Below, piece after piece: positions 4,725 through 36,358 of a DNA stretch of 64,000 nucleotides (positions are counted from its first letter, which is position 1; each line of letters starts with the position of its first letter). Source of the stretch: Escherichia coli (lineage in GTDB: Bacteria; Pseudomonadota; Gammaproteobacteria; Enterobacterales; Enterobacteriaceae); NCBI RefSeq assembly GCF_044324875.1, contig NZ_CP172188.1, one strand, 5' to 3'. Both the position numbers and the translations under genes were made by a program. Below the pieces are notes generated by a model. The model was not told where the DNA came from and did no database searches. It was given only the letters and a program-made list of their open reading frames with translations.

Positions 4725-5665
4725 TGAATCTGTCCATCTCTCAAAAAGCGACAATGACCAGCATTGAGATCGCGGAACTGGTAGGAAGTCGCCAAGATAG
4801 TGTGAAGAGAACTATCGAAACACTGGCTAAAAAGAGTGTGATCCAATTTCCACAATCTGTGGAAATTGAAAATAAACAATCAGTTGGCCCTCGTCGATTT
4901 TCCAAGGCTTACATCTTTGAAGGCGAACAAGGCAAGCGCGATAGTATCATTGTCGTCGCACAGCTCTCTCCGGAATTCACCGCCCGGCTGGTGGACCGCT
5001 GGCGCGAACTGGAGAATGCCAGGGGACCGTTAAAATCAAAAGCCGAAATCCTGGCTGAAATGGCGCAAATGCATCTTGAGCATGAACGCCGGATCAACGC
5101 CGTAAATGCCCAGGTAGCCGAGGTATCAGCACAAGTATCGATGGTCGCTGAAACACTCGAGCAAATAAAGAAAGGCAATATGCCGGAAGGCTACATTGGC
5201 TACCGCCAGCTGGCGGCGAAATGCGGCCTGACTGAAGCCAAATGTCGCAACCTGGTTAACGCTTACCGGATACCCACTGATACGCATGAGTTTTTGACTC
5301 CCGACGGTTTGCTTGCGCGACGCTCAATTGTGGCCCTGGCCCCCTTCCGGAAAGCCTTTAAGCAGGTTATGTCGGAGGCAGAACCACGCAACAAACGCTG
5401 GTATCATCCAAAGATGGGGATGTTTCAGGCAATCCACCATCCTGTGCCTGAAAGTCCAAAGGCAAACCTGTCGTTGCATACCGCCAGAGAGAGGATTAAA
5501 ACAGGGTATGCAATCGTATGCCGTCGAGCATCTTGGCCTGAAGGTGTATGGGTATGGCCCGAAGGTGGATCACGAAAGCACTGGCGCACTATCCGGGATG
5601 GGAAAATCCATGCGATTGATTTAGCTCCAGAGGATGTTGTTGCTACGGACTGGATTGTTAGTTAA
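4724..5665 (+). CDS. phage antirepressor-type protein (Rha-like N-terminal domain plus conserved C-terminal domain), module A
   Basis: 313 aa; N-terminus ...MTSIEIAELVGSRQDSVKRTIETL... resembles the Rha regulatory domain; C-terminal ~180 aa nearly identical to the module B and C proteins. Confidence 0.6.
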   Translation: MNLSISQKATMTSIEIAELVGSRQDSVKRTIETLAKKSVIQFPQSVEIENKQSVGPRRFSKAYIFEGEQGKRDSIIVVAQLSPEFTARLVDRWRELENARGPLKSKAEILAEMAQMHLEHERRINAVNAQVAEVSAQVSMVAETLEQIKKGNMPEGYIGYRQLAAKCGLTEAKCRNLVNAYRIPTDTHEFLTPDGLLARRSIVALAPFRKAFKQVMSEAEPRNKRWYHPKMGMFQAIHHPVPESPKANLSLHTARERIKTGYAIVCRRASWPEGVWVWPEGGSRKHWRTIRDGKIHAIDLAPEDVVATDWIVS

Positions 5666-5673
5666 TTACTGTT

Positions 5674-5695
5674 GCCCCGGCCTGTCCGGGGCTTT
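5674..5695 (+). terminator. conserved hairpin / terminator after the antirepressor gene
   Basis: ccccgg-cctgt-ccgggg followed by cttt; the same element follows modules B and C. Confidence 0.5.
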
Positions 5696-5724
5696 AACTA
5701 CTAAATAACCGGATTCTCCGCACG

Positions 5725-6009
5725 ATGAAGAAAATAGATTTCACTTACTCTGCTGCCACAATCCAGCGACGTTTCAGTCTCATAAGGGAAGTGGAACTAT
5801 CAAAAAACTGGTATCAAATTCTACTGGATGAAGAGTTTTCACTGATGGTTATAGCAGAAAAATTGGCTATGCCGAATGACCGGCACAAGGTCATAGCCAG
5901 CCTGGATCTGGTGACAAACAGATACTGGGAATCCGAGGAACTACTTGAAGTTGGCTTGATACGCGAGATGATAGAACAGGCTGTTCCCCTCCACTTACAG
6001 CAACCATAA
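5725..6009 (+). CDS. hypothetical protein (94 aa)
   Basis: ORF at the start of an AT-rich segment; no recognisable motif. Confidence 0.4.
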   Translation: MKKIDFTYSAATIQRRFSLIREVELSKNWYQILLDEEFSLMVIAEKLAMPNDRHKVIASLDLVTNRYWESEELLEVGLIREMIEQAVPLHLQQP

Positions 6010-6545: not shown

Positions 6546-7367
6546 TCACGAATCTCTCTGACAATTCAGAAACATAAACGCCCGCTTGTCTGTTAAATCC
6601 GTAACATAATACTCTCTCATGCCTGTAGGTTTTATTCTACGAGCATATACAAACTTATGAACTGGTTGTTTTTCCCCATAACTTACATCAGTCCTAAATT
6701 CATCAACCACGCTACCATCTTTTTCGACTTCCTTCCTCACCAGCTTATTTTCTAATGCTGGCTTTAATTCGTCCATGCCACTAAAAGCATCCTGGCCTGT
6801 ACTATTGCCTCGATTTCCGCGCGGCAAATCCCAGGAGAAATAAGTGCCATAGTCAGTAATCACACGATCCCAGACTCCGGTATCCCCCATATAGTTAGAG
6901 CGCTTTCCATTGTAGGTTACAGCCACTTTACAGGAGTACGTTTCTTCATTCCCTCCAGCCTTACTCGCTGTGGTTGCAGGGATATTTTGGATAGATGCGC
7001 TTACGTCATCTTGCGTTAATTCCTCAACTGGAGCAAATTCATATATGGGTGTGCCGAGGCTATTTAAATATAACTTATATCTAACCCTAAGCGCACTTCC
7101 ATCTGAGAATTCATACGTTCCCAGGCATTGGAGCTTATTTTTTTCTCTTATCTCATTGATCTGATAATAAGCATCAATTACAGAGATTGCTTCCTGATCG
7201 TCCTTCAGCAGTTCATTATAATCATCAATTAACATCTGTCTGGTTTTAGGGGCATTGCAGTCAATTTTGCTAAAATCATAAGCAAAGGCAAATGTGGGAA
7301 CAGAGAGAGCAACAACAGTAGCAAGTATTGTTGAGGAACATCTTTTTCCATTTTTTATAAAAAACAT
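6546..7367 (-). CDS. secreted / periplasmic protein of unknown function
   Basis: Start chosen at MFFIKNGKRCSSTILATVVALSVPTFAFA (signal-peptide-like, GGAG 8 nt upstream); the ORF track extends to 7430; AT-rich. Confidence 0.5.
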   Translation of the reverse strand: MFFIKNGKRCSSTILATVVALSVPTFAFAYDFSKIDCNAPKTRQMLIDDYNELLKDDQEAISVIDAYYQINEIREKNKLQCLGTYEFSDGSALRVRYKLYLNSLGTPIYEFAPVEELTQDDVSASIQNIPATTASKAGGNEETYSCKVAVTYNGKRSNYMGDTGVWDRVITDYGTYFSWDLPRGNRGNSTGQDAFSGMDELKPALENKLVRKEVEKDGSVVDEFRTDVSYGEKQPVHKFVYARRIKPTGMREYYVTDLTDKRAFMFLNCQRDS

Positions 7368-7607
7368 TTCATTAACTCCATACTTTACCATCTTAGCCGC
7401 GAGCGCGGTCCCTAAAACCATTAACTTCACTGCACCGTTCCTTCATGCAATCAAAATGACTTTTATGTTATAAAAATAATCAGCCAAATCAACATGATTT
7501 AGGCCAAATGCGTATTCCGCTCTATTCGATCACGGATTGGCATCGAAGTCCGATCAGCGATTCGCATCCATTCGATCAACCGGGAACTTAACTTTTTCTA
7601 CCGCTTT

Positions 7608-17186: not shown

Positions 17187-18167
17187 GTGGCCCAGGAGTT
17201 ACAACAATATTTTCTACAGTCAGTGCTCATTAACGATAACAAAGTGCCACGAGACTGGATTTTTACCGCAGTATATGTAGAAAAAACCAGCCTCAAAGCC
17301 CCTTTGCTAAAACTGGAAATTCATGACGCTACCGGCACCGTAATTGATGACTGGAAAGCCAAATACGGTGCATCGCTGGTGGCTGAAATGGGCGATCCAA
17401 ACGGTAATGCAGGCACTTTTAAAACAGATTTCTTTGTTACGTCTGCAATGCTGGCTGGTGATGTTGTTACCGTTATTGCTGTCAGTGAAGACGTGCGCAG
17501 GTTTAAGATCCCCTCCCCGCGCACAAATTTACATACCAACAAAACACCAGACGCTATATTCAAGGCATATTCCGGCAAGCTTAAAATTACCAGCAGCGTG
17601 CTAAAACGCGCAGTTACATATCATCTGAATGCCGGTGACAAACCGTCAAAAATGCTTTCGGAGATAGCGCGAGACAAAGGTGCATTATGTTGGGTATGCC
17701 GGGGGGAATTTAACTTTTACACCCTGGATGATCTGATGAAGCAAACGCCATCATTTACCTACGAGGGGAATAACCCTAAAGCAGAATACACTTTGTCCAA
17801 AATGCGCCTACTCCAACAGGAACATGCGACAACAGCAAAGAATCAATATCGTTTTGTTGGGTATTCCATGACCGATGGCTACGTCGAATATGGCGATAGC
17901 TCACTCCCAGTGCGTTATATATCCGACTCTGATATGGAAACTCTTCGCAATATGCAGCTGTCTCTCGTCCCCAAAATGGATATAGAAGTCGCAGGCAATC
18001 CGGATATAAAACCGGGAATGGTAATAGAGATTATCGTATACCGCTATGACCAGGAAAACCGCATTGATGAATCAATGCCCCGCAAGCTGATAGTAAAAAA
18101 TGTTGCGCACTTTGAAGACCGCGTAGGCTACACAACACGAATGATATTAGGAGTGCCGAACAAATGA
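17187..18167 (+). CDS. baseplate / tail-associated protein (unknown)
   Basis: 326 aa; stop overlaps the start of the spike-like gene. Confidence 0.4.
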   Translation: MAQELQQYFLQSVLINDNKVPRDWIFTAVYVEKTSLKAPLLKLEIHDATGTVIDDWKAKYGASLVAEMGDPNGNAGTFKTDFFVTSAMLAGDVVTVIAVSEDVRRFKIPSPRTNLHTNKTPDAIFKAYSGKLKITSSVLKRAVTYHLNAGDKPSKMLSEIARDKGALCWVCRGEFNFYTLDDLMKQTPSFTYEGNNPKAEYTLSKMRLLQQEHATTAKNQYRFVGYSMTDGYVEYGDSSLPVRYISDSDMETLRNMQLSLVPKMDIEVAGNPDIKPGMVIEIIVYRYDQENRIDESMPRKLIVKNVAHFEDRVGYTTRMILGVPNK

Positions 18168-18817
18168 AGCGTAGAGCGCAAATTGTTGGAACTGTGCACC
18201 CGGCAGGGCTTATGCGTGCTCAGGTCCGTGTTTTACCAGACTGGAATGGCGTTCCTGATGACGATCTACCCTGGGCAGAATACCTGTTACCCATAGGTAA
18301 CGCGTTTGTACCTACAGTAAAAGGCGACCTGGTATGGGTAGAGTTTCCTTATCTGGATGTTAATGGTCGAATTGATACCAGACGCCCAATGATAGTTGGC
18401 GCAGCTCAGGATGCGCCTGGCGGAGTACCAAACGTCGCGCCGGAGGCGTCAGGCAATGGTAGCGGCTGGACGCCACCAGAAGTAGACGGAGCGCCTCCCC
18501 GCCCGCAATTTTCGGCGACAAAAGATTTCGTGATTCACCGCAACAATGTGCTCGAAGTGCGAACGGCTGGCGGTGGATATGAAATAGCGAATACGGCAGC
18601 AGGCTCAAGGATTGGAATGAATGAATCAGGGCAGATATACATCATTGGTCCGGCTGATGTAGTAGTGAATGCGGGAGGGAGTGTTAACGTCAAATCAGCC
18701 GATAACATCAGCGTTAATGGCAAAAACATTACTGTGACAGCCGACGAAAATATTGATTTCAAGGCTGGAGGCACCTTCCAGGCTATCGCAAGCAACTTTG
18801 ATTTCAAGAAGGGATAG
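18164..18817 (+). CDS. baseplate central spike protein (gpV-like)
   Basis: N-terminal region VRVLPDWNGVPDDDLPWAEYLLPIG... and a Gly-rich C-terminal repeat-like region (ISVNGKNITVTADENIDFKAGG) resembling gpV-type spikes. Confidence 0.5.
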   Translation: MKRRAQIVGTVHPAGLMRAQVRVLPDWNGVPDDDLPWAEYLLPIGNAFVPTVKGDLVWVEFPYLDVNGRIDTRRPMIVGAAQDAPGGVPNVAPEASGNGSGWTPPEVDGAPPRPQFSATKDFVIHRNNVLEVRTAGGGYEIANTAAGSRIGMNESGQIYIIGPADVVVNAGGSVNVKSADNISVNGKNITVTADENIDFKAGGTFQAIASNFDFKKG

Positions 18818-24529: not shown

Positions 24530-24901
24530 TTAATCAGGGAGTGAGTTTGCCAAATTCTGAGCAGAGCGGCTTTTCGGAACGCCTGGTTTTTTTACATCCT
24601 CTGAGACAGAGGTTTTTCCTTCAGTAGGTTCCCGAACTTCATGCGAAATTTCAAGAAACGAAACCAGCATTTTTCTGATCACTTCAGAGCTATTATCACC
24701 GGATAAAAGCGATGCCAACATGGGAGGTAATCTGCTATCAACCTCGCCAAGAGCGATACCTGCAAGCATCGCAGTGCGCACCATATCATTGCGATCACTT
24801 AATGGATGGGCCTCAATTTTTGCCACAGCATATTGCTCACTGGCGTAAGCGTTAAGATCTGAACGAAGATAAAACATTATTTTTCGACGTTCTTTAGACA
24901 T
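24530..24901 (-). CDS. parR: ParR/StbB-like centromere-binding protein
   Basis: 123 aa directly downstream of parM; similar in size and N-terminal character to plasmid R1 ParR. Confidence 0.6.
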   Translation of the reverse strand: MSKERRKIMFYLRSDLNAYASEQYAVAKIEAHPLSDRNDMVRTAMLAGIALGEVDSRLPPMLASLLSGDNSSEVIRKMLVSFLEISHEVREPTEGKTSVSEDVKKPGVPKSRSAQNLANSLPD

Positions 24902-24911
24902 GGCAACCTCA

Positions 24912-25871
24912 TCAACCGATAGATTTTAGACCATATACAAGAGCAAGTTGTGGATCATCAGCAACGAAAAACCTATCGTCACGAATGTTTACCTGCTCAC
25001 GGATAGCATCAGCAACAAGCGGCGCGCCGCCACCAATTACCATAACATGTGTGTATCCTTTGAAATCACTGATCACATCCAGTACGCGTGTACGGAGTCG
25101 CTCTATGCTTGACGAAATGGCTTTCTTAACATCATCAATAGCAGACGGATCGTTAATATTGTCGGTCAGATAATCCTCATCATCTCGATTAATGATTAAT
25201 TGATCGACGTTATAATTAGAGGTTTCGGTATTAGCTTTTGCAAGTGCCTGTCTGACCTCTTTAGTTACCAGCGAAACGCCGAGATTAGAATCGCCAAATA
25301 CGCGAGAAACGGCGGTCATTTGCCCGGCAACCATCGACACATCCAGAGTAGTCCCGCCAAGATCAACAATAAGCACAGAATGCGCTGGCACAAGGCTGTC
25401 GCACAGACCGATCCCTGCGGGTATTGACTCCGGGCGCACAGTCACTTTTTTGATAGTAAAAACCTGACCTTTGTTAAGGGTGACTGGTCGCATCAGGCTG
25501 GCCTTTTTCCGCTCAATATTTTTCATGTTGTATTGTGCGTCGTCGTCATAAAACTCTGCCAGTGGCAACGTGACTACTATTTCCACTTCTTGAGGCTCAA
25601 TGCCACTTGTAAGCAGGGCATGATGAACAGCAAGCACATTAAGCGGGCTGTATTGCCATTCAACGTTATTCGTTGGCAGAGCATCCGGCGAGATCAAGTC
25701 ATATGAATATTTTTCGTCATCAATGATGTAGTTAAACGTTTTTCCTGCGCCAAATGTGGCGGACCATCCACGTTTAAAACTGTTCGGGCAGATATGGGTT
25801 CGAGTTTCCCCGTCTTGTTCCCACAGCATTTTGATATTGGTAGAACCATCGTCGATAAAAATGCGCATCAT
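24912..25871 (-). CDS. parM: ParM/StbA actin-like plasmid segregation ATPase
   Basis: MMRIFIDDGSTNIKM..., WQY..NV.AVHHALLTSG, ESIPAG, IVDLGGTTLDVS, GYTHVMVIGGGA: colinear with R1 ParM as I recall it; start at MMRIF. Confidence 0.85.
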   Translation of the reverse strand: MMRIFIDDGSTNIKMLWEQDGETRTHICPNSFKRGWSATFGAGKTFNYIIDDEKYSYDLISPDALPTNNVEWQYSPLNVLAVHHALLTSGIEPQEVEIVVTLPLAEFYDDDAQYNMKNIERKKASLMRPVTLNKGQVFTIKKVTVRPESIPAGIGLCDSLVPAHSVLIVDLGGTTLDVSMVAGQMTAVSRVFGDSNLGVSLVTKEVRQALAKANTETSNYNVDQLIINRDDEDYLTDNINDPSAIDDVKKAISSSIERLRTRVLDVISDFKGYTHVMVIGGGAPLVADAIREQVNIRDDRFFVADDPQLALVYGLKSIG

Positions 25872-25964
25872 ATTGCTCCACTTCTGAGACACATTTGAGA
25901 AAGAATTGAATCTTATATGAGAAAACAAAATAAAACCAGAAGTTGAGAGAGCAAAAAGCACCAG

Positions 25965-26032
25965 ATTTGAGACAAACCAGAGACAAACCAGAGACAAACT
26001 AGAGACACACTAGAGACAAGTATGAGAAACAA
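25965..26032. repeat. parC-like centromere iterons upstream of parM
   Basis: Five to six tandem ~11-bp units GAGACAAACCA / GAGACAAACTA / GAGACACACTA / GAGACAAGTAT. Confidence 0.6.
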
Positions 26033-26090
26033 GAAATCTTAAGAGTGAAAATCACAAAGTGGAGAAGATTTAAGAAAAAGGAGGTGTTAG

Positions 26091-26375
26091 ATGAGTGCAA
26101 TAGCGACCTGTGACACAGTTTGTTCCGGTCATGGAGGATTCCCTCCGCGACCTGTAGCAGAAACAGTTTCCTGGTTTACCGTAAATGGAAAGCCAGTTGT
26201 TGTAGATGGTGCCATGTTTCCCAGTCACACTGACGGTAACAGTGCACATCCAGGGGCAGCTGTATCGACGCGAGTATGGTTTTCGATAGGTGGAAAGGGA
26301 GTTGTCTGTGTAGGCGATCCGCTTTCTTGTGGTTCTGTTATCGCCAACGGCGAGGATATTTTTCAGGTTGCATAA
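26091..26375 (+). CDS. PAAR-like spike-tip protein
   Basis: 94 aa; Cys/His/Gly-Pro pattern CDTVCSGHGGFPP...HPGAAVS...GDPLSCGSV typical of PAAR-repeat proteins; strong AAGGAGG Shine-Dalgarno. Confidence 0.55.
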   Translation: MSAIATCDTVCSGHGGFPPRPVAETVSWFTVNGKPVVVDGAMFPSHTDGNSAHPGAAVSTRVWFSIGGKGVVCVGDPLSCGSVIANGEDIFQVA

Positions 26376-27181
26376 TGCTTGATTCAATAGGTGAAGTTAA
26401 AGCCTTCAAAATTCTGTCAGATGCCGGTATCTCTACACCAGAATCTATAACCATAAGCCGGGCAGCTTCTGTAAAAGCCTCATCGCTCGCCAGCGCCATA
26501 CAGGGAATAGTTCACGCCGATAAAACCTATCCTGATTCTGTTTCGGCCTGGACTACTCAATTGCTTGGCTTTTCTGAACAGCTCAATGAGGCCAGCAAAG
26601 CGTCTTCATCACTGGCTGATTCTCTTTCCCCATACACCAAGCCATCAGAGCTGTTACAGATGAAGATTGGCTGGGAATGCTACGCAAAAGGTAACGAGCT
26701 GACCCCCATACCTGCTTTCGCCCTTGTTGAGGGAATGGGGAATGTTTCCATTCCGCAATCTCTAACGGACGCATTGACGGCGCTAAAACTTGATGCTCTG
26801 AAAACCGCCATGAACGCCATTAACGCAAAAATTGAAGCTGCCGGAAGTGCTGGTGGTGGTGAAAGCAATGGTGGACAGGGTGGTGCTGGGGGCGCTCAGG
26901 CTCCAGTCATTACTCAGGATGAAATTGATGCTTTACGGGAAGCAGTGACAGCCGCCGAAGTTTTACTCTCCGAAATTAACTCAGCAAGTGAGGGTGTCGT
27001 AGCCCTTACAGGTCGCATTAAAACGTCAACCACTCAGGCAACCAAAGGTTTAGAGAACGCTGTCGCCATCACGTTAACTGGTTCTCTACTGGATGATGCA
27101 GTAATGAGTCCGGCAATCAGTTTAATCATGCCACAAGGCGTTATTGATGCGCTCCAAAAGAACACCAAAAAGGAACCATAG
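26375..27181 (+). CDS. hypothetical two-domain protein with a Gly-rich linker, coupled to the PAAR gene
   Basis: Start ATG overlaps the PAAR stop (TAATG); internal linker AAGSAGGGESNGGQGGAGGAQAPV. Confidence 0.45.
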   Translation: MLDSIGEVKAFKILSDAGISTPESITISRAASVKASSLASAIQGIVHADKTYPDSVSAWTTQLLGFSEQLNEASKASSSLADSLSPYTKPSELLQMKIGWECYAKGNELTPIPAFALVEGMGNVSIPQSLTDALTALKLDALKTAMNAINAKIEAAGSAGGGESNGGQGGAGGAQAPVITQDEIDALREAVTAAEVLLSEINSASEGVVALTGRIKTSTTQATKGLENAVAITLTGSLLDDAVMSPAISLIMPQGVIDALQKNTKKEP

Positions 27182-27206: not shown

Positions 27207-27710
27207 ATGTATATTGGTACATGTTTAACACCAAAAATGAACCTGAAGAGGATGGTTTTGAAAAAGATAATTTTGATTGTAATTGCGCTTTTAGCCATTT
27301 CTGGAATTTACCGAACAACGACGGCAGTTATCGAACACATCAGGTATGTCCGATCGCTTGAAGACTCAAAATCACAACTGGAAAGCACGAACAACACGCT
27401 TTCTACCGCATTACAGTTAAGTGAGAACGCTCGCTCAGCCATGCTGACCGAAAACGAAAGAATTAAAGCACTGGAAAAGGAGTACCAGCGCAAAACAGCA
27501 GAACTGAATGCCAACCTAATCAAACAACGAGAGGAAAGCCAGAATGAAATCACTCGCCTTGAAAATGCGTTGCGCCGTGCTGGGATTAACGATGTGCGTG
27601 TGCCTGATGACGTTATCAGGATGCAGCGGGAACGGGCAAAAGCCATCAACCAGCGTGCCAGTGAAAATTACCGTAGAAGCCACCAGCAAGCCGCAGGCAA
27701 ATCTGATTGA
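27207..27710 (+). CDS. i-spanin (Rz-like): N-terminal membrane anchor plus coiled coil
   Basis: Hydrophobic IILIVIALLAISGIY then heptad-rich region; start ambiguous (27207, 27237 or 27252). Confidence 0.55.
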   Translation: MYIGTCLTPKMNLKRMVLKKIILIVIALLAISGIYRTTTAVIEHIRYVRSLEDSKSQLESTNNTLSTALQLSENARSAMLTENERIKALEKEYQRKTAELNANLIKQREESQNEITRLENALRRAGINDVRVPDDVIRMQRERAKAINQRASENYRRSHQQAAGKSD

Positions 27711-27870
27711 TTACTCCCCTTGTTTAGTGCCAGAGGACACGCCAGTGCTGTTAAACAAGTATCCGACATACGCTGAACAGTTATTCAGCACGATCGACGA
27801 ATGCAACCAACGAAACGCACTGAATAACCAAAGAAACAGGGAGATTTGGGAAGGGAAGGGGCGGCAGTGA
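27544..27870 (+). CDS. o-spanin (Rz1-like lipoprotein), overlapping Rz in another frame
   Basis: Signal peptide with lipobox LSGC; Pro-rich mature part; begins inside the Rz gene in a different frame and extends past it; GAGAGGAAAG Shine-Dalgarno. Confidence 0.6.
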   Translation: MKSLALKMRCAVLGLTMCVCLMTLSGCSGNGQKPSTSVPVKITVEATSKPQANLIDYSPCLVPEDTPVLLNKYPTYAEQLFSTIDECNQRNALNNQRNREIWEGKGRQ

Positions 27871-27961: not shown

Positions 27962-27990
27962 TTGATCTTCCATGTTTTCAGGCTTATATT
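27962..27990 (+). promoter_or_regulatory. sigma70-like promoter of module B
   Basis: TTGATC - 17 bp - TATATT; identical sequence in module D and, reverse-complemented, in module C. Confidence 0.5.
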
Positions 27991-27996
27991 CACGCC

Positions 27997-28237
27997 GTTG
28001 CAGCAAATTCTGCGACCGGGTTTAGCAGCCTGAATGTACATGCGGACAACCGCAGATATCCGATATTGCGGTATTTTTGTGTCCGTAAAACCATGTTACG
28101 CCCGAATTATGGTGGGGCGTGATGGGGAGGCTTCGGCCTGCTGGTTTCATGTACGCCAGTCTGCTAACCCCGTCACGTCCTGCCACCCGTTTAGCAGCGG
28201 GTAGCAGGTTGTTAAACCTGTACATGAGGCCGTAACT
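27997..28237 (+). ncRNA. structured leader with an embedded c4-like antisense regulator and two target sites (module B)
   Basis: Elements TTAGCAG/GTACATG at 28022-28042 and 28191-28226 (the second abuts the GAGG Shine-Dalgarno) are complementary to CATGTAC/CTGCTAA at 28148-28167; the complementarity is kept by compensatory changes in modules C and D. Confidence 0.5.
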
Positions 28238-28462
28238 ATGGTTAATGCCAATCCTTGCTCACGTCCAGAATTCATCTGGCGTTTTCACTCCCTGCAAAAA
28301 CACTGCGATCACTTCGCAATTGCCGCAACTGAAAAAGAAGCCCGTTCTCTGATCCCTGATCAGTATGGTGTTCTTACTGGTCGTTTCTCTACTTCCCCAC
28401 AACCAAACACTAATCCCTGGTATCGCAATATTACCAATCCCGGAATTGCGGAGGCACACTGA
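28238..28462 (+). CDS. small protein upstream of the antirepressor (Icd-position ORF, module B)
   Basis: 74 aa; TGATG coupling to the next gene. Confidence 0.65.
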   Translation: MVNANPCSRPEFIWRFHSLQKHCDHFAIAATEKEARSLIPDQYGVLTGRFSTSPQPNTNPWYRNITNPGIAEAH

Positions 28463-29382
28463 TGGATATCTGCATTCTTGAAAAGCCATCAATGACCAGC
28501 ATTGAGATCGCGGAGCTGGTGGGAAGTCGTCCAGATAACGTAAAAATATCAATAGAGCGCCTGGCTAAATCTGGAGTTATTCAACTTCCTGCATTGCAGG
28601 TTTTCGAAAAAATCAATAACTTAGGACTACGCCGTAGTGTCGAGGCTTACGTCTTCGAAGGCGAGCAAGGCAAACGAGACAGCATTATTGTCGTTGCGCA
28701 GCTCTCTCCCGAATTCACCGCCCGGCTGGTGGACCGCTGGCGCGAACTGGAAGAACAAGTACGCCAGCCGTTGACCGAAATAGAGATGATCGCCGCAATG
28801 GCTGCAAATGCAGTTCAGCAGCAAAAGCGGCTTCATGTTGTTGAGTCAAAGGTTAGCCAGGTTGCTGAAACCGTCGAGCAGATCAAGAAGGGCAACATGC
28901 CAGAAGGTTACATTGGCTACCGCCAGCTGGCGGCGAAATGTGGCCTGACTGAAGCCAAATGTCGCAACCTGGTTAACGCTTTCCGGATTCCCACCGATAC
29001 GCATGAGTTTTTAACTCCAGATGGTTTGCTTGCGCGACGCTCCATTGTGGCCCTGGCCCCCTTCCGGAAAGCCTTTAAGCAGGTGATGTCGGAGGCAGAA
29101 CCACGCAACAAACGCTGGTATCATCCGAAGATGGGGCTGTTTCAGGCAATCCATCATCCTGTGCCTGAAAGCCCAAAGGATAATCTGTCACTACATACCG
29201 TCAGAGAGAAGATCAGGACTGGATACGCAACAGTGTGTCGTCGTTCTTCCTGGCCTGAAGGTATATGGGTGTGGCCCGAAGGTGGATCACGAAAGCACTG
29301 GCGCACTATCCGGGACGGGAAAATCCATGCTATTGATTTAGCGCCAGAGGATATTGTTGCTACGGACTGGATTGTTAGTTAA
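28462..29382 (+). CDS. phage antirepressor-type protein (Rha-like N-domain), module B
   Basis: 306 aa; N-terminus ...MTSIEIAELVGSRPDNVKISIERL...; conserved C-terminal domain. Confidence 0.65.
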   Translation: MDICILEKPSMTSIEIAELVGSRPDNVKISIERLAKSGVIQLPALQVFEKINNLGLRRSVEAYVFEGEQGKRDSIIVVAQLSPEFTARLVDRWRELEEQVRQPLTEIEMIAAMAANAVQQQKRLHVVESKVSQVAETVEQIKKGNMPEGYIGYRQLAAKCGLTEAKCRNLVNAFRIPTDTHEFLTPDGLLARRSIVALAPFRKAFKQVMSEAEPRNKRWYHPKMGLFQAIHHPVPESPKDNLSLHTVREKIRTGYATVCRRSSWPEGIWVWPEGGSRKHWRTIRDGKIHAIDLAPEDIVATDWIVS

Positions 29383-34655: not shown

Positions 34656-35252
34656 GTGTATTGCGGAGCAAGTTTAGCTGATGGCATAAGCCCTTTTTTA
34701 AAGGTTTATATTATAAACGAGTCCAATACAGATATGGTGGTCGGCTATATTGGAGAAGGTTCGTCGGCGGAATTAGCATCACTATGGCAATCCCCATTTG
34801 AAGATAAAGCTATGGGAAGTTTGTTAGGCTCAATTAGTGAAGCAGCGTCATCATTTGCCAGCATAGTTCAAAATTTAAGTGGACTGACAAGCAAAAGCCG
34901 ATTCAATTCCACGTTAATCTGGGAAGGACAACAGCCACCAGAGTTCAATCTTGTGCTGGATTTCTTAGCAACATCCAATGCAAAAATTGAAGTTAATGAC
35001 GCAATTACAACCTTATTGAAAATGGCCTCTCCAGAGTTAAATGACGTTGCGCCAATGGGAAGGATTCCTGAAACAGTCACAATTAATATTGGCAGAAACG
35101 TCCTGCTAACTGGCGTTGTTATCAAAAGCGTGAGTTACCAACTGGACGCCCCGCGCACACCGGAAGGCTATTTCACTCATAACACGGTAACCCTGCAATG
35201 CAGCGGTAACACATCGATCAACCGTAGCAATATCTCATCTGTTTTTGTGTAG
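34656..35252 (+). CDS. tail tube-like protein (tentative)
   Basis: 198 aa, downstream of the sheath-like gene; size and position only. Confidence 0.3.
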   Translation: MYCGASLADGISPFLKVYIINESNTDMVVGYIGEGSSAELASLWQSPFEDKAMGSLLGSISEAASSFASIVQNLSGLTSKSRFNSTLIWEGQQPPEFNLVLDFLATSNAKIEVNDAITTLLKMASPELNDVAPMGRIPETVTINIGRNVLLTGVVIKSVSYQLDAPRTPEGYFTHNTVTLQCSGNTSINRSNISSVFV

Positions 35253-35260
35253 GAGTATTT

Positions 35261-35752
35261 ATGTCCGGTTTTGCAAATACAAAAGCCGATATGGCCTTTC
35301 TAAAATCCCGGTTTAATAAAAACCTGGCTGCAGGCGAAAAACTTATTGGTTCTGAATATTGGATGACCATTAAGGGTTACGAACATCTGTCTGTACTAGT
35401 TCGTACAGCTCAGTTACCAGAAATGACACGTGAAGATGTGGAGGATTACGCCCCTGGTGGCATGAAATTCAACCAGCACGGACCATTACGCAACTCTGGT
35501 GAATTTCAGGTCACATGCGCGGAAACTATCGAAGGCGCAGTTCTCGCCGCTGTAAAACAGATGGTATACGGAAAAGAATATCTGGAAATTACCTTACAGG
35601 CGGCGGCTGAATCGAATAGCGGTAACCATAAAGGTCTGATCCGCACATATTCTCATTGCAAAGTGTATTCCGACGCCGTGGACTTCTCATCCGAAGACGT
35701 AACGGCGGTCGTTAAACCTTCCCTGCGCATTGTTTACAACTGGGCGGAATAA
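35261..35752 (+). CDS. hypothetical phage structural protein
   Basis: 163 aa ORF in the structural operon. Confidence 0.4.
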   Translation: MSGFANTKADMAFLKSRFNKNLAAGEKLIGSEYWMTIKGYEHLSVLVRTAQLPEMTREDVEDYAPGGMKFNQHGPLRNSGEFQVTCAETIEGAVLAAVKQMVYGKEYLEITLQAAAESNSGNHKGLIRTYSHCKVYSDAVDFSSEDVTAVVKPSLRIVYNWAE

Positions 35753-35806
35753 TCCCTATCCCGCCCTTGTGGCGGGAACATCCTTGTTATTGAGTTGTAG
35801 GCAACA

Positions 35807-36358
35807 ATGACACCAATTGAATTATTAGAAAGCGTTAAAGAGCGATTTAATCCGCTGCTTGTGCGTGAAGAAGAAACGTTGAAAGCATTCCTGATCAAAG
35901 CTCTGACCACGTATCAGGACAGGGCAGGGGTAGTGAAAACGTTAAAACTTGAAAGAGCTGGTGGTACTGCAATCCCGTTGCCAGAAGATTATCTCTCTCT
36001 GGTTCATGTTACCGACAACAACGGCCTGTTGGTCTATTCGGATGAATTATCCGGCTTTATTGAATTAGAGCTAACAGGTTCAGAACGCTGGCCTTTTCGA
36101 ATGCTGTATCTGGTTAATCTACGCGACAGAAAGCTGGATGAATGGCAAGTGCCTCCTGCAATCATTGGAATGCTAGAGGAATATCTGGAGGCGCTTATCA
36201 ATGTAAGAAATGTCGCCCGGCAGCGTAGAGCGTCCATCGACGGGAAATTTGACTACTCCGATCTGCCCGATGAAGCCACGCTATATGCCCGCGTGCAGGA
36301 GATTGAGGAAAAAATGTCCTCAAACCGGGCCATTATTCCGGGGGCTACCATTTTTTAA
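35807..36358 (+). CDS. hypothetical phage structural protein
   Basis: 183 aa ORF in the structural operon. Confidence 0.4.
   Translation: MTPIELLESVKERFNPLLVREEETLKAFLIKALTTYQDRAGVVKTLKLERAGGTAIPLPEDYLSLVHVTDNNGLLVYSDELSGFIELELTGSERWPFRMLYLVNLRDRKLDEWQVPPAIIGMLEEYLEALINVRNVARQRRASIDGKFDYSDLPDEATLYARVQEIEEKMSSNRAIIPGATIF

Follow-up and report, generated by a model that had tools for sequence, protein, structure and literature searches.

The closest described relatives of the two genes considered here are upfC and upfB of phage P1. In the original P1 annotation UpfC was reported to be 31% identical to T4 ORF5.4, and Gonzales et al. 2022 (PMC9024508) connected it with gp5.4 through HHpred. Plaquing of P1 was unaffected when upfC or upfB was deleted in frame, and neither protein was among the 27 that were detected by LC-MS/MS in CsCl-purified P1 virions, an analysis that also missed gp5, gp26 and PmgA (PMC9024508). 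In a CRISPRi screen of P1 both genes were non-essential (PMC10695390). In a cryo-EM study of P1 from 2026 (PMC12810830), UpfC was built as a monomer that forms the tip of the gp5 trimer. The same study described a novel 'tripod', made up of three UpfB trimers that are attached to this tip; for UpfB the map reached medium resolution only, and its model was one from AlphaFold3. The PDB holds no deposited UpfB chain, which is consistent with this medium-resolution view. A second P1 baseplate preprint (bioRxiv 2025.07.21.665459) placed UpfC at the needle tip and left UpfB unmentioned.

In T4, gp5.4 is dispensable for assembly and gives a fitness advantage, and it is essential on deep-rough LPS mutants (PMC12407873). 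Its metal site consists of three His and one Cys, and the substitution H14A abolishes binding to the spike (PMC12407873). The spike of phage P2 is translocated into the periplasm by sheath contraction (PMC12407873). Phage D6 is a myovirus related to P1 and persists in plasmid form. Its record annotates orf57 as 'similar to P1 gene upfC', orf56 as 'similar to P1 gene upfB' and orf66, the spike gene, as 'similar to P1 gene 5'.

The window, i.e. the whole 64,000-nucleotide stretch of Escherichia coli DNA that was analysed, belongs to a phage-plasmid that resembles phage D6 and is related to P1. Over 3.5 kb around the gene pair the DNA was 92% identical to that of Escherichia phage D6, and at the amino acid level the identities to D6 were 93.6% for UpfC (orf57) and 98.5% for UpfB (orf56). 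In PLSDB the pair region was found in 590 plasmid records, mostly from E. coli; eight records, most of them of about 92 kb, covered at least 80% of the query. The pair represents the D6-lineage orthologues of P1 upfC and upfB, both of which have a published description in P1 and an annotation in D6. The features of the locus are as follows.

18164-18817, plus strand: gp5-type trimeric beta-helical spike (PDB 9vzk_q, 'Gp5' of P1, E 5.4e-54)
24530-25997, minus strand: ParM and ParR partition genes (phrog_691, phrog_8671)
26079-26084, plus strand: Shine-Dalgarno sequence AGGAGG of the upfC homologue, 6 nt before the ATG, read directly from the sequence
26091-26375, plus strand: upfC homologue, 94 aa, ATG start
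26373-26377, plus strand: TAATG stop/start overlap of upfC and upfB, with TAA at 26373-26375, ATG at 26375-26377 and one shared base
26375-27181, plus strand: upfB homologue, 268 aa, TAG stop at 27179-27181
26846-26911, plus strand: linker coding region of the upfB homologue, rich in Gly/Ala/Ser/Pro, residues ~158-179
27207-27710, plus strand: Rz-like i-spanin (phrog_214, phrog_89), counterpart of P1 ppfA
27544-27870, plus strand: Rz1-like o-spanin lipoprotein (phrog_456, phrog_30284), lipobox LSGC, counterpart of P1 mlp

The gene structure given in the original prediction was borne out in all its parts: the strong Shine-Dalgarno sequence ahead of the 94-aa gene, the start codon of the 268-aa gene overlapping the preceding stop, and a Gly-rich linker that parts two regions of the second protein and is disordered in the AlphaFold2 model. 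A longer frame of 301 aa starting at 26276 is also open for the upfB homologue according to the ORF list. In an alignment of 50 homologues M1 of UpfB is invariant and L2 nearly invariant, and the start was therefore assigned to 26375 rather than to 26276. Both upfC and upfB can be regarded as real genes and not as chance ORFs because their proteins are conserved in nine divergent lineages. Translation of the two frames is likely to be coupled through the TAATG overlap. A late-promoter pattern of P1, AAGTGACTT-N4-TANAAT, was derived from the annotated LP23; it was absent upstream of upfC and matched once within the window, which is chance level. A sigma-70 scan upstream of the upfC homologue likewise found none.

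Downstream of the pair, the Rz-like protein has an N-terminal membrane segment (KD 2.48), and its true start is possibly M16 at 27252. The Rz1-like gene overlaps the end of the Rz-like gene in a different frame. The assignment as counterparts of ppfA and mlp is supported by matches of P1 PpfA to phrog_89 (E 1.5e-24) and of P1 Mlp to phrog_30284 (E 6e-76). Upstream, the gene at 18164-18817 had been described as spike-like and as lying about 8 kb from the pair. The match to P1 Gp5 supports the former, but the distance is 7.3 kb.

The 94-aa protein is clearly a PAAR-repeat spike tip of the gp5.4 class as judged by sequence comparison, in agreement with its earlier description as PAAR-like. This assignment follows from the match to PHROG 281 ('PAAR motif', E 2.5e-28), from direct matches to solved tips, and from a conserved metal site. 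Among the solved tips were P1 UpfC itself (PDB 9vyi_A, E 1.9e-35) and T4 gp5.4 (5iv5_ZA, E 6e-6; 4ku0, ~1e-5). A further match was obtained to 4jiv_D (E 6.7e-4), a 93-residue chain labelled 'Putative uncharacterized protein'. We take 4jiv to be a PAAR-spike complex of a type VI secretion system (T6SS) and its chain D to be the T6SS PAAR protein. In the proposed check by PAAR HMMs the protein remained below the curated threshold of Pfam PF05488 (i-E 0.028 and 0.11). It also fell short of NCBIfam T6SS_PAAR (NF033420), a model named for T6SS PAAR proteins, with a score of 37 bits where 124 are required. Taken strictly, these thresholds place it outside the PAAR models, and its place in the gp5.4 class follows from the comparison with solved tips.

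H14, H46, H53 and C80 of UpfC align with the metal-ligand His/Cys positions of T4 gp5.4, His14 among them, and are conserved in all nine lineages compared. Thus, the protein has a predicted tetrahedral metal site of three His and one Cys. The cognate gp5-type spike is encoded in the window, and from its 57% identity to P1 UpfC the protein would be expected at the spike tip in the virion.

The second protein had been presented as an unknown one. It matched phrog_1559 over residues 1-265 of 268 (E 2.2e-110), as did P1 UpfB (E 3.9e-136), and BLASTP aligned 263 aa of it with P1 UpfB at 27% identity (E 7e-22). The two proteins are collinear from end to end and carry a Gly/Ser-rich linker at the same position. 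As judged by these sequence comparisons, it is orthologous to P1 UpfB and a member of the phrog_1559 family, and it is annotated as such in D6. P1 UpfB has been described as a structural protein of the virion, and a known structural protein as partner is an outcome that the original prediction had itself named as counting against it. Pfam, NCBIfam and PDB sequences gave no match.

The UpfB family is small and, where its members are named, confined to the Enterobacterales. A search of 1.84 billion cluster representatives returned just 48 relatives, which are 245-268 aa long apart from a minority of short fragments. Ten clusters were looked up; these were located on contigs of 48-121 kb, and the seven that are named belong to Citrobacter, Enterobacter, Edwardsiella, Plesiomonas and Buttiauxella, all of them Enterobacterales. 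Closer matches include Escherichia, Salmonella and Cronobacter. A profile search for distant relatives with the UpfB alignment recovered known family members only, and none of 50 UpfB relatives had a Pfam match.

In the alignment of homologues Y52, G99 and N150 are invariant and P53 and W100 nearly so; the conserved motifs are YP and IGWEC, and the most conserved stretch comprises residues 88-108 (KPSELLQMKIGWECYAKGN). The linker varies between 2 and 26 residues across 50 homologues. Variants that are at least 85% identical to UpfB of the window range from 260 to 269 aa, nearly all of these length differences falling into the linker. The protein is acidic (pI 4.65). Its maximum KD of 1.39 indicates no membrane segment, and the N-terminal sequence MLDSIGEVKAFKILSDAG is unlike that of a signal peptide. 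Absence of a signal peptide and of a membrane segment fits cytoplasmic assembly into virions.

The AlphaFold2 model of the UpfB homologue, computed with the family alignment, is all-helical and of high confidence (pLDDT 90.9, pTM 0.83). Helices occupy residues 5-158 and are followed by disorder at 159-180, where pLDDT drops below 50 at residues 168-172 of the linker; residues 181-238 form one helix of 58 residues, and two further helices are short. In the predicted architecture of UpfB, a flexible linker that varies in length connects an N-terminal helical bundle to a long C-terminal helix. A fusion of UpfC and UpfB via (GGGGS)6, modelled with AlphaFold2 and partly paired rows, reached pTM 0.65; the models disagreed, and four out of five had a pLDDT of 73-76.

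Foldseek comparison of the UpfB model with the PDB gave nothing meaningful. Its best neighbours among the predicted viral structures of BFVD were DUF7217 proteins (PF23854) of Ackermannviridae such as CBA120 orf171 (E 4e-4, TM 0.47-0.56 over the full length). CBA120 orf171 was confirmed as a DUF7217 protein and was the top match of the UpfB HMM among 84 CBA120 ORFs, though at E 0.008 only. Like UpfB, DUF7217 proteins are all-helical, with about 240 aa, but none of the genes next to CBA120 orf171 carries a PAAR annotation. Homology was rejected on the basis of an hhalign profile-profile probability of 0.6%, and Pfam DUF7217 matched none of 50 UpfB members. We regard this as a resemblance only.

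The pair was compared in nine lineages: the window, P1, Cronobacter phage JK004, two from Enterobacter, and one each from Edwardsiella, Plesiomonas, Citrobacter and Buttiauxella. UpfB identity within this set goes down to 22%. A UpfC-like gene of 93-95 aa is located upstream of upfB in all nine lineages as well as in D6. The one-base overlap of the two frames was found in three lineages. In four others the frames are 7-9 nt apart, three of these having a Shine-Dalgarno-like GGAG or AGGA at the end of upfC, and two carry extra DNA between the genes.

A lysis gene is found directly beside the pair in seven of the nine lineages. Spanins adjoin it in the window (and in D6), in P1 (ppfA/mlp), in JK004 and in the Plesiomonas lineage L008; an endolysin gene does so in Enterobacter L004, and an endolysin gene together with a spanin pair in Buttiauxella L011. 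In Edwardsiella L006 a holin-like gene is inserted between upfC and upfB. The original prediction had correctly located the pair between the ParMR module and Rz/Rz1, away from the baseplate genes, and P1 shows the order upfC-upfB-ppfA-mlp. Given the nearby lysis genes in seven of nine lineages, the position beside spanins and away from the baseplate is common to these P1-like lineages and not a peculiarity of the window.

This neighbourhood, and the probable co-transcription of upfB with the spanin, endolysin or holin genes, could be taken to mean that UpfB serves the lysis system as an accessory protein. We consider this very improbable. UpfB is soluble and acidic and lacks export or membrane signals, and therefore cannot reach the periplasm, where the spanins act. 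Furthermore, P1 lacking upfB plaques normally, lineage L010 has no lysis gene near the pair, and it is the tip gene, not a lysis gene, to which upfB is always coupled.

Mean pairwise identity among the nine lineages was 54% for UpfC and 27% for UpfB, and UpfC was the more conserved protein in all 36 lineage pairs. Hence, UpfB diverges twice as fast as UpfC. Such a difference is expected of a host-facing protein, and it is one of the points in favour of a cargo or effector role, in which UpfB would ride on the PAAR tip, be delivered to the periplasm of the infected cell and act there, for example on envelope, defence or superinfection. A flexible linker whose length varies even among close variants would suit a tethered module, and the placement of UpfB in the P1 cryo-EM study, if right, locates it on a portion of the tail that passes into the periplasm. 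The original prediction had pointed out that PAAR proteins often carry or recruit effectors; recruitment of the partner to the tip agrees with the P1 cryo-EM study (PMC12810830), but an effector nature of the partner is at odds with the lack of any toxin or enzyme match. Searches of Pfam, NCBIfam and PDB with the protein and 50 relatives gave no toxin, enzyme or other family, the model is a plain helical bundle with generic structural neighbours only, and a conserved adjacent immunity-like gene is missing. Neither deletion of upfB nor the CRISPRi knock-down produced a plaquing phenotype in P1, and nine copies arranged as three trimers look structural. An effector function is thus improbable.

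Most of the observations are accommodated if the pair is the D6-lineage form of the P1 upfC-upfB module, encoding a PAAR tip and a tip-bound helical UpfB on a gp5-type spike, and we consider this explanation probable. Gene structure, orthology, fold class and linkage were observed here, and virion location and stoichiometry are taken from the literature. UpfC would fold into a metal-stabilised monomeric PAAR-repeat cone on the blunt end of the gp5 beta-helix. UpfB, made from the coupled downstream frame, would assemble on UpfC, presumably as three trimers as assigned in P1. The resulting complex would form the extreme end of the tail, the first part to meet the outer membrane. By analogy to T4 gp5.4, it may be unneeded for building the particle or for plaques on standard hosts, and it probably makes crossing of the outer envelope more efficient; this role in penetration is inferred.

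The placement of UpfB in the virion comes from one P1 study, and UpfB of the D6 lineage is 27% identical to the P1 protein. The mass-spectrometry result for P1 fits uneasily with the stoichiometry of the tripod, and it is difficult to see how nine subunits of 27 kDa on a tip that pierces would serve to sharpen it. UpfB may instead be an assembly helper or a temporary cap for the tip, the density at the P1 tip then representing another protein or a sub-population of particles. That UpfB, a protein of 27-28 kDa with nine proposed copies, escaped detection by LC-MS/MS and is not reported by the second P1 baseplate study speaks for such a helper, and chaperone-client pairs, too, are typically encoded by closely linked genes whose translation is coupled, as is likely for upfC and upfB. 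The same LC-MS/MS analysis, however, missed several certain baseplate proteins, the tip density of P1 fits the AlphaFold3 trimer of UpfB, and T4 gp5.4 binds its spike without a helper, even in vitro. We therefore see little probability in a helper or cap and retain the tip-bound module as the preferred explanation.

What is added by this study is that UpfB constitutes a small family, of Enterobacterales where named, which is linked to the tip gene, is mostly adjacent to lysis genes and shows twice the divergence of UpfC. The protein is predicted to be all-helical without a solved relative, and the length of its linker shifts among close variants. The residual interest lies in the function of UpfB, a lineage-restricted helical protein that is dispensable in the laboratory and is situated on a supposedly sharp structure. 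It may be speculated, though it is on the whole doubtful, that UpfB is a fast-evolving, host-facing tip attachment of the P1-like phage-plasmids of Enterobacterales that enters the periplasm and tunes penetration or host range. If this were true, the near-constant linkage to lysis genes would reflect an ancestral envelope-crossing operon combining entry (tip and tripod) with exit (holin, endolysin, spanins). P1-like phage-plasmids commonly carry resistance genes in E. coli and Salmonella, and control of their entry into hosts is of some practical interest for this reason.

Among known systems, the PAAR proteins of T6SS resemble the pair in having a tip that is related in sequence (4jiv_D) and in that the PAAR cone bears something additional on the spike. 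In contrast to these systems, the pair, whose neighbours are genes of phages and plasmids, is not accompanied by T6SS genes, a toxin domain, an immunity gene or an adaptor or chaperone family, and UpfB is proposed to be present in nine structural copies instead of as one effector. T4 gp5.4 shares with UpfC the small single-domain tip and the aligned site of three His and one Cys; it caps a trimeric beta-helical spike and is needed neither for assembly nor for plaque formation on standard hosts. T4 gp5 has a lysozyme domain, whereas gp5 of the P1 type does not, and no T4-like record was among the matches when a phage collection was searched with UpfB. P1 differs from the window in sequence, with 56-57% identity for UpfC and just 26-27% for UpfB, in the spacing of the two frames, which are 8 nt apart in P1 and overlap as TAATG in the window, and in the upstream neighbours, which are uhr-hrdC-dmt in P1 and parMR in the window. 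In P1 and the window alike, both protein families are present (phrog_281, phrog_1559), and gene order (upfC-upfB-ppfA-mlp in P1), orientation and the presence of a spanin pair downstream agree. The proteins of P1, D6 and the window are of similar length, 94 aa for UpfC and 262-268 aa for UpfB, with the linker at an equal position.

The association of the spike-tip module, upfC (PAAR-repeat spike-tip protein) and its partner upfB, with the lysis cassette is recurrent. In distant relatives of the phage-plasmid in the window, other lysis genes interrupt the upfC-upfB pair or come after it:

L006 (Edwardsiella tarda contig) 5633-6001, holin-like gene of 122 aa between upfC and upfB
L004 (Enterobacter contig) 6901-7506, endolysin-like gene with the pair
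L011 (Buttiauxella contig) 4746-5641, Peptidase_M15_4 endolysin and spanin pair with the pair

In Enterobacter and Citrobacter relatives, the capsid-like gene is followed by one for a very long protein of 1563-1882 aa that carries Big_1 and Invasin_D3 repeats. The equivalent position in the window lacks such a protein:

L004 11113-12780; L005 10272-11939; L009 7636-8762, location of this arrangement

In the window, the P1-type immI immunity region begins directly 3' of the spanin genes, since the a1/b1 target sites, the C4 antisense RNA and, downstream of both, an anti-repressor gene were found there, together with an icd-like region that also lies downstream of the C4 RNA:

27984-28036, a1/b1 target sites (RF03163; Rfam match, 53.5 bits)
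28105-28190, C4 antisense RNA (RF01695; Rfam match, 71.7 bits)
28462-29382, Ant anti-repressor

On the other side of the module, parM/stbA and upfC are divergent and separated by 220 bp. This gap contains direct repeats:

25958-26030, about 6 copies of the 11-bp iteron GAGACAAACNA

These iterons look like a parC-type centromere and promoter of the ParMR system. Neither a sigma-70-like nor a P1 late-promoter match that could serve upfC was found in the 220-bp gap. An unusual cargo for a phage-plasmid is the counterpart of D6 orf62, for which the D6 annotation gives a glutaminyl-tRNA synthetase resembling GlnS of E. coli:

21393-23054 (-), ORF of 553 aa

D6-type UpfB variants that share 85% identity or more with the protein of the window (P0001-P0015) are 260-269 aa long. 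Indels of 1-8 residues among them fall nearly all within the Gly-rich linker (DNA 26846-26911), a concentration that hints at slippage having occurred repeatedly or at the length of the linker being under relaxed constraint. For UpfB of P1, the family alignment favours a form shorter than the annotated one, of 262 aa, which begins with MLEKDY 8 nt past the upfC stop codon:

L012 (P1, AF234172) 1045-1890, upfB as annotated, 281 aa, from an upstream ATG within upfC

Comparison of predicted structures points to a DUF7217 protein of phage CBA120 as the nearest neighbour of UpfB among viral proteins:

L015 (CBA120) 35169-35897, orf171, DUF7217

This protein is weakly similar to tape-measure proteins, and PHROG 289 includes versions of the DUF7217 protein that are fused to the adjacent 'GTP-binding domain' protein.
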